Source: Eledone cirrhosa
Taxonomy: Eukaryota
Direction: 5' to 3'
Length of the DNA: 64,000 bases
Assembly: GCA_964016885.1 (NCBI GenBank)
Contig: OZ024750.1
Coordinates: 1,550,001 to 1,614,000 of the forward strand
How positions within the stretch are numbered: the stretch's first letter is position 1; every line of letters starts with the position of its first letter. A program made the position numbers and the translations under genes. This document shows, in pieces, positions 9,531 to 59,450 of the stretch. The notes beneath the pieces were generated by a model that saw only the letters and a program-made list of their open reading frames with translations, did no database searches and was not told the origin of the DNA.

Positions 9531-13754
<4,224 letters not shown>

Positions 13755-13866
13755 TTCCGACATCTGTGAATATATTCAAACATCGGATATAATCACTTAT
13801 ATATTCTCCGACATTAACACGTCTATGATTGCTGTGAGATATAGGCACGGTCCAACATATGGCAAT

Positions 13867-13924
<58 letters not shown>

Positions 13925-13994
13925 CTGTATAATCAGCTCCTGATTATTACTGGAATTCTATAAGAATCCAGCTTCTATAACTTTCGGCGGAAGC

Positions 13995-14058
13995 AGGGGA
14001 GTGTGTGGTTCTGATGAACGCCAACCAGCGTGAAACAGACTGTCAGCTTCTCTCCCTT
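13995..14058 (+). ncRNA. Minimal type I hammerhead ribozyme (Penelope-type)
   Basis: GGUU-CUGAUGA(14011-14017)-ACGC caacca GCGU-GAAA(14032-14035)-CAG a CUG-UC-AGCU. GUC triplet, predicted cleavage after 14044. Distal helix I could extend through GGGGAG/CUCUCC. Confidence 0.8.
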
Positions 14059-14172
14059 CTTTCACCGAAAATAAGTAAGTGACATAGTCACTACTTTAAA
14101 ACTGATAGCGTATGGTCTTCTAAATGTTTTTAATTAAACATACGGTATATTGCCAAATATACTATACATACA

Positions 14173-14221
<49 letters not shown>

Positions 14222-14498
14222 CTAAGCGTATCAAAAGTGTCAGAGAAATTTCCGCAGGGAGCTTGCTTCACAGAGTGTCAGAGTCTAGATACTATAATAT
14301 ATTAAAATAAAATTATATGTACATGCGTGTATGTGTTGGTCTGTGCATTTATGTATTATGTATGTCTGTATGTATAAGTGTATTTGTCTAAAATGGAATA
14401 TATTTTTGTTACATATATAATTGTTTCTACTTACATATATAATGTTTTGTATTTTAGCTTTGGACACTCGTGCCATTGCGATGAATAAAGTGAGGATT

Positions 14499-14890
14499 GG
14501 TGGATTGGCAGTATCGGTAGAGCGTCAGAAACATGTTTTGCAGCATAGAGTTACGGCCATTTACGTTCTGAGTTCGAATCCCGCCGAGTTAGCTTTGCCT
14601 TTTATCCTTACGGGGTCACTGGCGTCGATTTAATCGACTTTCCCTCCCCTCAAATTGTTGGCCTTCTGCCTAAATCAGAAATCATTATTATTACTACTAA
14701 GTGCGGTAAATTGGCAGTATCGGTAGAGGGTCCATGCTTTGACGCATAGAGTTACGGCCCTTGCCATTCTGAGTTCAAATCCCGCCGAGGTTGACATTGC
14801 CTTTCATCCTTACGAGGTCGATAAAATAAAGTACCAGTAATACACTGGGTAATTGCTGGCCTTGTGCCTAAAGTAGAAACAATTATTATT
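14499..14890 (+). mobile_element. Two tandem tRNA-derived SINE copies
   Basis: A-box-like TGGCAGTATCGG, B-box GAGTTCGAATCC/GAGTTCAAATCC, conserved core and tail GGCCTTGTGCCTAAAGTAGAAACAATTATT. Confidence 0.88.
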
Positions 14891-17530: not shown

Positions 17531-20500
17531 CAGAATTATCATAAATATTCTGGTGTCTTTCAGATGAAGAGGATGTGTTCATTGTATATATGAACAAAAT
17601 AAAACATCTACTGTATAAGTCATATAGGAGGTGAGGCTGAAGTTTGTGATGAATATTGATTTTACTTTCATCCAATCTCATCAATTACGTACAAAATCTT
17701 TAGGTAGCTTTCAGATTGGCATTATTTATCTAAAAAGCAATATATGTCTTCTTTTAAGTAGCTCATATAGGATGAATAAATAATTCATTGTTTTAAAAAT
17801 ACATCCATTGAATGCGCCGTTTAACAAGTTGTTAGATACAAAACTAGGTTTATTTTCATGGTAGAAATATTTCATGTTCCCTCTTTCATATATATGACAA
17901 ACTCTGTTGAAAACGTTTGCGCCCTTTTGCTGGGAAAAATATTCATGTACTTGCTGGGGTTCAATTGCTAATCCCCTTCGAAATAGGCCCCTTCTGCGTC
18001 TATACCCAGCGATATTTCCACCTTTCGATGCACACCTGTAATGAGTCTTGAATAATCGCTCTGTGACAGATACTGAAACATCCAGAGATCTCACCAAACC
18101 CCATCATGAATCTAGAGTACCTACTCTGCACATGCTTGACTCATTAACGTCTTTAATTCTCAAGGACAAAATATAGTCGGATACATTTTCGACAGATCTT
18201 GTGGCTAGCTGCAGTTGGCAACATTTATAATATTCTGTTTTTCATGGTAGAATGTATTAAAACAATAAAACCTTTCTTAATTATTACGCGTCTAATTAAC
18301 CCATAGTGCTGAGCACAAATCCTGCATTAGATTTTCAGAACGTATCGCAATATCACACCAATATATTGTGCTGGTAAGTAATTCCATATCCTCGTGAGAC
18401 ATTTTAACATCGAAAATAGCATCAAAATCATCAATAAATAGTTCGGAAAGAAGCAGTTAAGAACCCTACAAAGGATTAAATGTAGCAAATCTTTCTATTG
18501 TAATTTCCAATGCTTACTATGCGTTACAAAATAATCAGGTACCATATGGACCAGTCAATTACCTTTTGGTTCCCTAAGTAACATTGTTGCTCCCTCTTAA
18601 GCCTGGTACCTTATAATACAGGTTAGTAACTTTAGATTCATAAATCTATCTCAAAATATTTAAGAACACAATTATGATTTTAGAGGATGAAACATAAACC
18701 ACAATTTGTTATCCCTTTGTCATATATAACAAAATAAGCCTAACTCTCTTTGTAGCATTATGGAATATATAATCAAATACATCAACAAGAGAAGATACAT
18801 TTAACAAATTAAGGTTTACAATTTCTATTGAAACCATTTGTCAAATCAATTCTAACGAAGTGTGAAACTGATAGTTTAGACTGTCATGTAATTCAAATAT
18901 ATTTCAATTTACAGAATTGTACTTATATTGTGTTCTTCAATTTTAATTTATTTCAGTTAGTATTCTAAGGATCATATTTACTATACGTTATCTGAGAAAG
19001 TTTTAAAAGGTTCAGAAAGTACATAGAAGGATTCTACTTTTCTTAGCTTATACGTTAGAGTTAACAATTATGCATAACATTTATCGAAATCAGTAACGTA
19101 GATGTCATTAATATAGTTTGACTATTACTATTCTCACATACCTATAATAAACTTGATATTCTACTCTTAAACAAAATACATTATATATATTATGATCTAT
19201 TTAATTGTCTGTATTAAAGCACTGGAATAAAACAACTACTGTTTATGTTAATATCCAGCGGAGGAAGAAAAGGGACTCTAATTGAAATATTCTTTCATAT
19301 TCCCACTCAAATGATTCATAATTTTTATTGCAGTTTATTGAAACGAATATTGATGGAAAGAAAAAAAAAATGATTTTCGTATTATTTTATATGGTACGAT
19401 AAAAACAAGATGTAAGTAATTATTGCATGTCTGTAATGATATAAAGATAAACATTATATATAATTTTTGAAGAAAATATCTAATAAAACGCCATACTTAC
19501 AACGTTAAACACAATCATTTATAACTAAAATTTGAATGGAATGATAATAGAAAATTAGGTTATTTACCTGACTGCTTACAATGACGATATTCTGCTTCGA
19601 TTATAACACCAAAGAAAAAAATATAATGAAAGTAAACCCATTTGTGTGAAAATGACAGAATCAATTGAACATTGAAGAAAATGCCAGTCAGTATTTAGAA
19701 ATGGAATTCTATGTTTCTAAGATCAAATCTCATTGAGGTCAACTTTTGACTTACTTTCTTCTGGAATCAATACATTTGATACGTGTCAAATACTAGGATC
19801 AATATAATTGACAGATTTCCCCTTCACCTCACATTTCTGGCCTTTGCTTATGCATAAATAATTTCTGTCAGATATTAATATTAATTGAAATCTTAATGTC
19901 GGATAGCTTTTCTGCCCAATTCAATGAAGTCTTGGTTGTTATATTTTCCAGAAACATGTGGTTTGTTTTGTACATAATGCTTCTTGAGTGACAACATGCT
20001 TATATTTCCAAATGTTCAATGGATTTTCTCTGGGGAAAGTAATCATGTCAGTGACAAAAGCTAGAGACTAGCTTGGGGATACTATAAAATATATAATATA
20101 AACCAATAATGTTATGAATGATACACTTGTACGAACTTAAGGAGGTGCAAAATAAATGATATGCATATGGCACAGATATAGCTAGATAGTTGAAATGTTC
20201 GACTTACACTCGGTTAATCTAAATTTCGATTAACAAGCAACTGTTGGTGTTAATATAATTGACTAAAACCCGTGATTATGGTACATAAGGAAAGCAACAG
20301 TCAAACGACGGAAACCAGTGAAATGGTAAATAAACATGATGTTATGAATACCCGTTACCACGTTCTGTTGATTCTACCACTACGCCGCCACGTATTATAT
20401 TCAAATTTACAACATTCACGATGTAATTCGAAGCAACTAAATATATTCAAGACGTATTTTCAGTAGATAAATATTGATTTCCAACATTTGGCATGAAGTT

Positions 20501-25723: not shown

Positions 25724-26131
<408 letters not shown>

Positions 26132-26966: not shown

Positions 26967-27090
26967 TCGAAACGGCTTGAGCTCTGCCGTCGGGGTCATA
27001 CTTTCTCCTATTACCCACTCTACTAGCCTAAGTATTGAGTACTCTGGTGTGTTATGATCCATCTGGTTCCTTACCACAACTCCTTCGTTA
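26967..27090 (+). mobile_element. Penelope-like fragment carrying the 3' half of a hammerhead
   Basis: GAAA-CGGC-ttgagctct-GCCG-TC-GGGG at 26969-26995, followed by the shared family sequence; flanked by (TA)n. Confidence 0.6.
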
Positions 27091-27557
27091 TATATATATA
27101 TATATATATATATGGGGGTGGGATACGTGTGTATGTATGTGTATTTGCGTGTTTGTGTATTATATATATATATAGGGTATCTCAAAAATATGCATTAAAA
27201 TAAATTCTGTTTTATATGCATTATTTAAATTATGTAAAGTACCAGTAATACACTGAAATAATTGCTGGCCTTGTGCCAAAAGTAGAAACAATTATTTAAA
27301 TTATGTAAATATTTGGATGTTTACATACAATTGAGATATGTCTGTAGATCATTTTATTTTTGGGAAAGGCTATGCATTCTAATATTACCTGTACAGGTAA
27401 TCAAAATGTGTATACATTTTTGGGGGGAACAATCTATCATTAGTAGTTTTTTAATCGCCCTCGAAAGTGCAGAGAGGTAGAACGAATACAGCATTCTATC
27501 AGACGTTGGAACGCCTCAGCCAATATATATACGTACACACACGTACACCCCCCCCCC

Positions 27558-27760: not shown

Positions 27761-27866
27761 CGGGGTTAAGTTTACGGTTATGTTTACGGTAAGTTTTAGC
27801 GTTAGGTTTGTGTTAGTTTTAGGGTTAGGTTTTTGGATAGGTTTAGGGTTAGATTTAGGGTTACGG
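27761..27866. repeat. Degenerate TTAGGG-like hexamer array
   Basis: GGGTTA/GGTTTA/CGGTTA/AGGGTT variants with 6-bp periodicity. Confidence 0.7.
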
Positions 27867-41098: not shown

Positions 41099-41131
41099 TT
41101 AGGGTTAGGGTTAGGGTTAGGGTTAGGGTTA
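41099..41131 (+). repeat. Interstitial telomeric repeat (TTAGGG)5
   Basis: Five perfect TTAGGG units. Confidence 0.95.
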
Positions 41132-44598: not shown

Positions 44599-46899
<2,301 letters not shown>

Positions 46900-46950
46900 C
46901 TATGTATATATGTATGTATATATGTATGTATGTAATTTATATATATTATT

Positions 46951-59160: not shown

Positions 59161-59450
<290 letters not shown>

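Follow-up and report, generated by a model that had tools for sequence, protein, structure and literature searches.

A hammerhead-bearing cassette in the Eledone cirrhosa genome as a probable truncated copy of a non-LTR retrozyme with a likely Penelope-like partner

A short cassette with the parts of a hammerhead ribozyme lies behind a possible stop codon in the 64,000-nucleotide stretch of Eledone cirrhosa DNA analyzed here (the window). This raises the question of whether the ribozyme is a remnant of a Penelope-like element (PLE), part of a mobile element of another kind or a component of a host 3' UTR. The parts listed in the initial annotation (CUGAUGA, a 4-bp helix II, GAAA and a GUC site) were all found in place, and by sequence reading they form a complete type I hammerhead on the + strand at 14011-14044, in which C3-A9, G12-A15.1 and U16.1-H17 are all present. 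The catalytic core C3-A9, CUGAUGA, occupies 14011-14017, as indicated by the sequence, the covariation set and the core count described below. Helix II with its 6-nt loop follows at 14018-14031 (ACGC at 14018-14021 with GCGU at 14028-14031), based on covariation and a pair probability of about 1 in the fold. The segment 14032-14044 comprises GAAA (14032-14035), a 9-nt near-palindromic helix III stretch (14035-14043) and the GUC, and the predicted cut would fall after 14044. Folding and covariation additionally indicate a long helix I, which was absent from the earlier list; its 5' strand at about 13981-14010, with the proximal 4 bp at 14007-14010, is paired with a 3' strand at 14045-14071. A C>T exchange at 14009 converts a proximal C-G pair of this helix to U-G in the window copy.

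Scanning both strands of the window with a descriptor of all three helices yielded this hammerhead as the single site, and the same descriptor gave 0 matches in 300 block-wise dinucleotide-shuffled windows. The fold of the 101-nt domain had a z of -3.29, and 0 of 200 shuffles were equally good. An Rfam search of the window returned nothing at the gathering score; the best sub-threshold match was Hammerhead_HH9 with 19.6 bits (cut-off 52, E = 0.082). Sub-cut-off Rfam matches to microRNAs were rejected as microsatellite artefacts. The minimum-energy fold differs from the hammerhead fold both in the window copy and in the majority sequence of its family (family A, see below), and forcing the hammerhead fold costs 7.5 and 7.9 kcal/mol, respectively, in energies that leave the tertiary core out of account. 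The pair probabilities of proximal helix I are at most 0.02, and the window copy is predicted to cleave weakly alone. Dimer cleavage had originally been proposed on the ground that helix III would be closed by a sterically implausible 1-nt loop. Such a loop is not forced, since including A15.1-U16.1 gives the pairs A-U, C-G and A-U with a GAC triloop. Helix III has an unfavorable energy as a monomer hairpin (+2.1 kcal/mol) and is stable when it forms a self-duplex (-6.9 kcal/mol), and the dimer idea therefore rests on energy and not on sterics. While the steric argument falls away, cleavage as a dimer is indirectly favored by a palindromic or near-palindromic helix III across subfamilies.

The cassette belongs to a family of non-coding cyclic 316-nt units with one type I hammerhead, which we designated family A. 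With a 235-nt query, 2774 candidates were obtained in the 3.0-Gb genome, and the best 40 places were 95-100% identical. A 30-mer from the 3' part of the unit occurs at at least 997 exact places (control 0), and the exact 34-nt core of the window copy at 156 (control 0). With unit positions counted from the predicted cut site, the window copy is a 5'-truncated, 254-nt piece on the + strand (13924-14177) that comprises positions 196-316 followed by 1-133. It is without positions 134-195, which are 62 nt of the conserved domain; in longer copies, the sequence upstream of the originally noted cassette consists of these 62 further nt and then the unit's own 3' end. The part of the conserved 3' domain that is present (14072-14177, + strand) ends at the 'short' end of the family, which has no tail. 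Compared with the family A majority, the copy shows five substitutions and one polymorphic site; two of the substitutions are at CpG and one weakens proximal helix I. The cassette had been described as about 250 bp long and bounded by (TG)n and (TA)n. Its boundaries were right to within 2 nt, but it is a truncated piece of the unit and not a whole element, and, while a (TA)n run does stand at the 3' junction (14178-14220), on the left the 5' junction adjoins a compound (AC)n(AT)n(GT)n microsatellite (13867-13923). Compound microsatellite runs are common in the window (95 TRF rows). We infer that 14177 is the point where reverse transcription started and that the (TA)n run was the insertion target. 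The window copy has this (TA)n end and no inverted arm; judged from its sequence, it is a single short arm, 5'-truncated and neutrally mutating, with an intact core. The unit also contains a possible intron, with a GTAAGT donor (window 14073-14078) and, ~120 nt apart, a TTTCAG acceptor at about unit 145-152, a region absent from the window copy; some PLEs have introns.

Further repeats were observed in the window. A second short repeat stands beside (TA)n at 11205-11290, 25841-25924, 27012-27095 and 59301-59381 (88-94% alike) and also occurs in 35 of the collected genome loci. Just downstream of the element, two copies of a SINE-like repeat of ~190 nt are located at 14500-14890; it was found in at least 15 other places, and ARAGORN detected no tRNA gene in it. 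The window additionally contains a 35-bp minisatellite (899-1492, 17 copies, 97% matches), four copies of a 420-440-bp repeat (44760-46900) with a weak, sub-cut-off C2H2 zinc-finger match, and short interstitial TTAGGG-like repeats (41099-41131 and 27763-27863).

For the analysis of family A insertions we used the first 100 matches listed for the 30-mer, all on contig C1, which were merged per insertion into 81 loci; 7 places already seen in score-ranked searches were excluded, which limits ranking bias. Among the 121 probe-bearing segments in these loci, 83 cross the cut site, 6 cross it twice and 37 are longer than one unit. The tandem copies for which a BLASTN check had been suggested are thus present, and family B (see below) contains long arrays; no family A array above about 2.3 units was found among the loci examined. 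The 3' ends fall into two groups ~35 nt apart, with 63 of the 121 segments ending at unit 121-150 (near 133) and 43 at 161-180 (near 168). A (TA)4 was present at 85 of 105 classed ends, compared with 6.9% of random 38-nt windows. In 40 of the 81 loci we observed head-to-head pairs (41 in total), and where both ends could be classed the 35-nt tail was on one arm only in 19 of 23 pairs (binomial p = 0.0007). Opposite-strand joints inside the element also occur in contigs of sequencing run X1, and therefore the inversions are not solely a product of assembly, with the qualification that the X1 sample may be the same as that of the assembly. Successive rounds of an arm share non-majority variants at 12% of variant sites (78 pairs) and the two arms at 16% (33 pairs), versus 3.9% between loci, the pairs in both sets not being independent. 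In 31 of the 121 segments the 5' end lies at unit 11-40, on the 3' strand of helix I or directly beyond it; stalling of the reverse transcriptase (RT) at the hairpin is a guess as to the reason. That copies might end at the upstream cut site was considered early on and rejected as a query artefact. In sequencing run X4, which carries another label, three low-depth pieces of 151 nt map to the element and none to the flank; the presence of the family in another species is not supported by these pieces.

A sister family, family B, was found through locus L156. Its unit of 310 nt is identical to family A in 217 of 320 aligned columns (68%). Counted by the exact core pattern, family B has 4090 cores in the genome, of which the first 100 listed lie about ten to a locus. 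In a sample of 11 arrays (the first 10 on C1 and that of L156), 9 are head-to-head, with arms of 0.6-14.4 units each at 99.2-100% identity. All nine have one short and one tailed end, these ends meet TA-rich repeats, and the junctions overlap by 1-5 nt in seven. Four further arrays, picked by variant pattern, are all head-to-head, and the three that could be classified each have a short and a tailed end, so that the tail is one-sided in 12 of 12 classifiable pairs. Relative to the dominant unit, 5 of the 15 arrays carry variants that are present in every unit of both arms; in L218 four variants were found at 4/4 or 5/5 units. The remaining 10 arrays match one dominant sequence. From the array-wide variants in family B and the variant sharing in family A we conclude that one template sequence supplies both arms and all rounds, and a monomer circle explains this most simply. 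The near-perfect tandem palindromes have the form that rolling-circle copying would give. Perfect identity among family B units could partly be due to assembly polishing; judged by sequence, the family looks very recently active. Examples are located at G000:C1:5388500-5392900 (L205), C1:43040300-43045800 (L211) and C1:294899800-294903600 (L215), and further dispersed palindromes in TA-rich repeats number several hundred by estimate.

For comparison across subfamilies, 20 representatives chosen with the core pattern were aligned to the structure of the window copy. In this set 90.4% of the cells are paired, both partners have changed in 17 of 25 pairs, and sliding the partners by 1-3 columns as a control left 36-46% paired. 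Pair 3-8 is C-G in 6 of the 20 rows and U-A in 14. As the representatives were selected by the core pattern, conservation of the core in this set is by construction, and it is the slid controls and the both-side changes that carry weight. Helix III varies in length and sequence between types; of the 10 compared, one of them from PLE repeats, 7 have a perfectly palindromic helix III and the rest a near-palindrome, in keeping with the dimer cleavage described for metazoan hammerheads (PMC4209133). Among 165 family A segments, CpG sites change most, and non-CpG change amounts to 5.0% in the core, a figure that includes the common C17>U subvariant, versus 2.6-3.5% outside the ribozyme. The core is thus no better kept among family A copies than the rest of the unit, and the helices covary across subfamilies. 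Since the helices and pair 3-8 covary, ribozyme function has been retained at the level of the source; selection acts on source copies, and family A copies decay neutrally. The older subfamilies L111, L153, L107, L220, L228, L236 and L245 have U3-A8 cores and a longer palindromic helix III. More distant hammerhead units were seen in L249, L250 (period about 460 nt), L213:1240-1418, L109:1000-1500 and L247, and some of these distant units carry the octamer ATGCAAAT, which may resemble snRNA-type promoters.

To ask what could mobilize such a unit we turned to the PLEs of the genome, in which 10596 GIY-YIG candidates were found. The sampled loci encode an RT and a GIY-YIG nuclease with a cysteine motif before the nuclease, and would be of the Neptune type as described by Craig et al. 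The terminal repeat carries a U3-A8 hammerhead in 7 of 24 sampled PLE loci, and helix III of these hammerheads has 6 nt and is palindromic in all but one of them; two of nine matches had been dropped, L062 being an inserted family A copy and L170 doubtful. Another PLE family carries a C3-G8 hammerhead. The spacing from cut to end is 144-203 nt in 5 of the 7 PLE repeats versus 133 nt in the unit. The PLE repeats of L167 (G000:C1:145869500-145876500), L168, L063, L064, L072 and L075 combine a U3-A8 hammerhead with an ACCGGU helix III, and long open frames in L167 and L169 (938 and 1096 aa) are candidate drivers. Apart from the one inserted family A copy, the unit showed no homology to the 24 PLE loci. 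The search for a driver covered 20 GIY-YIG loci, 4 long-ORF loci, a shared-motif pattern (167 matches, 30 loci read) and 6 extended loci; it yielded more retrozyme subfamilies and unrelated PLE repeats, and no ORF-linked unit in the sampled loci. A tblastn search with three PLE ORFs over the loci collected likewise found no ORF contiguous with a unit, and the ORF matches near units were separate neighbors, on the opposite strand or beyond their own terminal repeat or (TA)n run.

These results separate the two origins that had been suggested for the cassette. A remnant of a Penelope pseudo-LTR (pLTR) is not what the longer copies indicate: upstream of them lies the unit's own 3' part and never an ORF end, the pLTRs of the 24 sampled PLE loci carry other, non-homologous hammerheads, and the anticipated linked PLE ORF was not joined to any unit in the loci examined. 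The other suggestion, a retrozyme-like non-autonomous retroelement, agrees with a high-copy non-coding 316-nt unit that has tandem copies and no linked ORF in the loci sampled. The link to Penelope holds in the form of a likely driver in trans, supported by the one-sided tail, the inverted arms and the (TA)n ends. Because this PLE-specific tail is on exactly one arm, it ties the elements to the two internal RT start sites of PLEs, and the element likely works as PLE cargo whose partner is supplied in trans.

By its sequence, family A would be classed with the non-LTR retrozymes, its unit lying in the 150-450 bp non-coding range and having one hammerhead. Metazoan non-LTR retrozymes of coral, mussel and axolotl are expressed as circles, and the accessible text of that study leaves the driver open between LINEs and PLEs (Cervera and de la Pena 2020, PMC7229834). 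In so far as this text describes them, they share with our families the 150-450 bp non-coding unit, one type I hammerhead, tandem copies and a weak helix III suited to dimer cleavage, and a U-U mismatch at the helix II base is common to family B and the axolotl HHR_Amex2; unlike those retrozymes, most copies here are partial arms at dispersed places. The accessible text describes neither (TA)n targeting nor head-to-head palindromes in which one side alone has the tail (PMC7229834). Vertebrate non-LTR retrozymes have been interpreted as PLE derivatives (Li, Clavereau, Pollet 2026, bioRxiv 10.64898/2026.07.22.740005). Like the elements described here they are non-autonomous, PLE-linked and present as monomer, dimer and multimer copies, and their exonic copies tend toward 3' UTRs. 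Their link to PLEs was drawn from co-occurrence and pLTR homology, whereas here it comes from insertion footprints, and no homologous pLTR was found in 24 loci. Two consecutive intact ribozymes are required in that study, and on this measure the window copy, whose locus has one ribozyme, is inactive. Lacking a second ribozyme and 62 nt of the unit, it cannot release a monomer and is a dead end. Insertions of PLEs themselves are 5'-truncated, have an inverted arm and carry a tail of 30-40 bp at one of their ends (Arkhipova et al. 2013, PMC3846280; Craig et al. 2021). Work with a purified PLE showed that RT starts at two internal sites downstream of the hammerhead and that the distance between them makes up the tail (Frangieh et al. 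2024, PMC11167929). The order of a hammerhead upstream of two RT start sites, shown for that PLE, would apply here as well, and the 5' truncation, the inverted arm, the 30-40 nt tail on one end and the microsatellite bias also agree with what the accessible sources give for EN+ PLEs (Neptune type, Poseidon PAc). In contrast to EN+ PLEs, there is no ORF, and the unit is cyclic with up to 14 repeats per arm in family B. As far as the accessible text of PMC4209133 and PMC3088659 shows, the short helix III, palindromic loop and proposed dimers correspond to canonical metazoan type I hammerheads, from which many subfamilies here differ by U3-A8 instead of C3-G8 and by a helix I extended to about 25 bp. 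Among the papers listed on hammerhead ribozymes and cephalopods, none describes such an element in its title or abstract, and at this level head-to-head retrozyme arrays are likewise absent from the papers listed, the supplements of which may hold such data.

The surroundings of the window copy were inspected for a host gene. A stop codon upstream in sense orientation, as the initial annotation had it, is present as TAG at 13752-13754. The core begins 257 nt after it (earlier given as about 260), the cut lies 290 nt and the start of the element 170 nt from it. A single-copy candidate terminal coding exon with a splice site and an open frame ends with this TAG (13706-13754), and two candidate exons precede it on the + strand, one at 12655-12732 (AG ... 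GTATGA) in phase with 13706 and one at 9531-9626 (AG ... GTAAGT) in phase with 12655 in one of two open frames. All three have good splice sites and compatible phase, and 13754 is plausible as the end of a host terminal exon. Tested singly, the candidate exons gave no convincing Pfam match, and neither a paralogue nor an Atlas lead above 0.8 was obtained; a likeness to a death domain is possible. Contigs of runs X1-X3 (one sample, possibly the source of the window) span 11900-13860 in unspliced form and lend the exons no support. Between stop and cut there is no canonical poly(A) signal, so the candidate transcript, if real, may include the ribozyme; the first such signal is the ATTAAA at 14133, inside the element, and is followed by another ATTAAA at 14301 and an AATAAA at 14484. 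Downstream of the element, an exon-like stretch with an open frame (TTTCAG ... GTGAGG) is located at 17564-17630; should it belong to this gene as well, some transcripts could have the element within an intron.

We consider it probable that the window feature is a truncated copy of a non-LTR retrozyme whose likely circular RNA was copied by a PLE protein. Transcripts of tandem source copies would be processed into single units by their hammerheads, which likely act as dimers by way of the palindromic helix III, and, as the literature suggests, the monomer would be ligated into a circle. A PLE protein with RT and GIY-YIG domains would then cut a (TA)n run and prime both DNA ends, at two internal RNA sites ~35 nt apart; the footprint of this step is seen, and the enzyme is deduced from it. 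Each cDNA would run round the unit for a variable length and through the ribozyme junction, and the two arms would be joined head to head, both of which have left footprints. With the same family and driver, the template could instead be a linear, uncleaved multimeric transcript, with ribozyme and circles not used in insertion. This is unlikely in our view, although ribozyme mutants left insertion unchanged and unprocessed RNA was the main substrate in PMC11167929, the predicted monomer fold is weak, and one of nine Xenopus dimers was cleaved (Li et al. 2026, bioRxiv 10.64898/2026.07.22.740005). An uncleaved homogeneous multimer would leave similar arrays, and with 10 of 15 family B arrays matching one dominant sequence, a few master arrays could supply it. 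Nevertheless, the array-wide variants, three of which occur only in L218 and one only in L210 among the 15 arrays, fit repeated copying of one monomer better, and the helices and pair 3-8 covary across subfamilies.

That 37 of 121 segments exceed one unit by running into its own 3' part, that PLE ORFs match by tblastn only as separate neighbors of units, and that the sampled PLE repeats are unrelated to the unit in sequence makes it very improbable that an autonomous PLE, truncated at its 5' end and with full-length copies unsampled, left the piece as its 3' pseudo-LTR, even if PLEs likewise have a tail, an inverted arm, a (TA)n target and a hammerhead, the 133 nt from cut to end resemble the PLE repeats of this genome (144-203 nt in 5/7), and 24 of 57 Xenopus retrozyme families are homologous to annotated elements, nearly all of them PLE termini (bioRxiv 10.64898/2026.07.22.740005). 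Host-co-opted 3' UTR ribozymes exist in the form of the Clec2 type. We give the least credence to the idea that the host keeps the window copy in this way, as a ribozyme that separates the mRNA from its poly(A) signal and thereby reduces expression. Its sense orientation, the phase-consistent chain of three candidate exons ending at 13754 and the absence of AATAAA or ATTAAA between stop and cut would suit such a role; the intact core would as well, but 156 identical cores make it a common feature, and the family A core changes more (5.0%) than the sequence outside the ribozyme (2.6-3.5%). The window copy moreover shows CpG decay and a weakened helix I pair, is a solo copy with no dimer partner in cis, and follows exons that singly lack a convincing Pfam match. 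As the ribozyme is one, weak and decaying, an effect on host mRNA is possible as a side effect rather than a function.

Taken together, the truncated retrozyme copy in the window is by itself ordinary, one of many decaying arms, and notable only for its sense position after a possible stop. Animal retrozymes and the idea of their movement by PLEs were known already; the insertions described here bear the PLE-specific tail on exactly one arm, and the added value of the locus lies in the insertion footprints, chiefly those of family B outside the window. It is possible, and we put it forward tentatively, that a retrozyme lineage is still active in which a PLE RT dimer copies one circular RNA for up to 14 rounds into a palindrome, the window copy being a relic that maybe nicks an mRNA. 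The one-sided tails and the multi-round arms with array-wide variants make the model of the circle as template directly testable. If it is true, family B and the near-intact PLEs beside it would be a system to show that ribozyme circles serve as templates of transposition, and would provide the means to name the driver of animal ribozyme circles.
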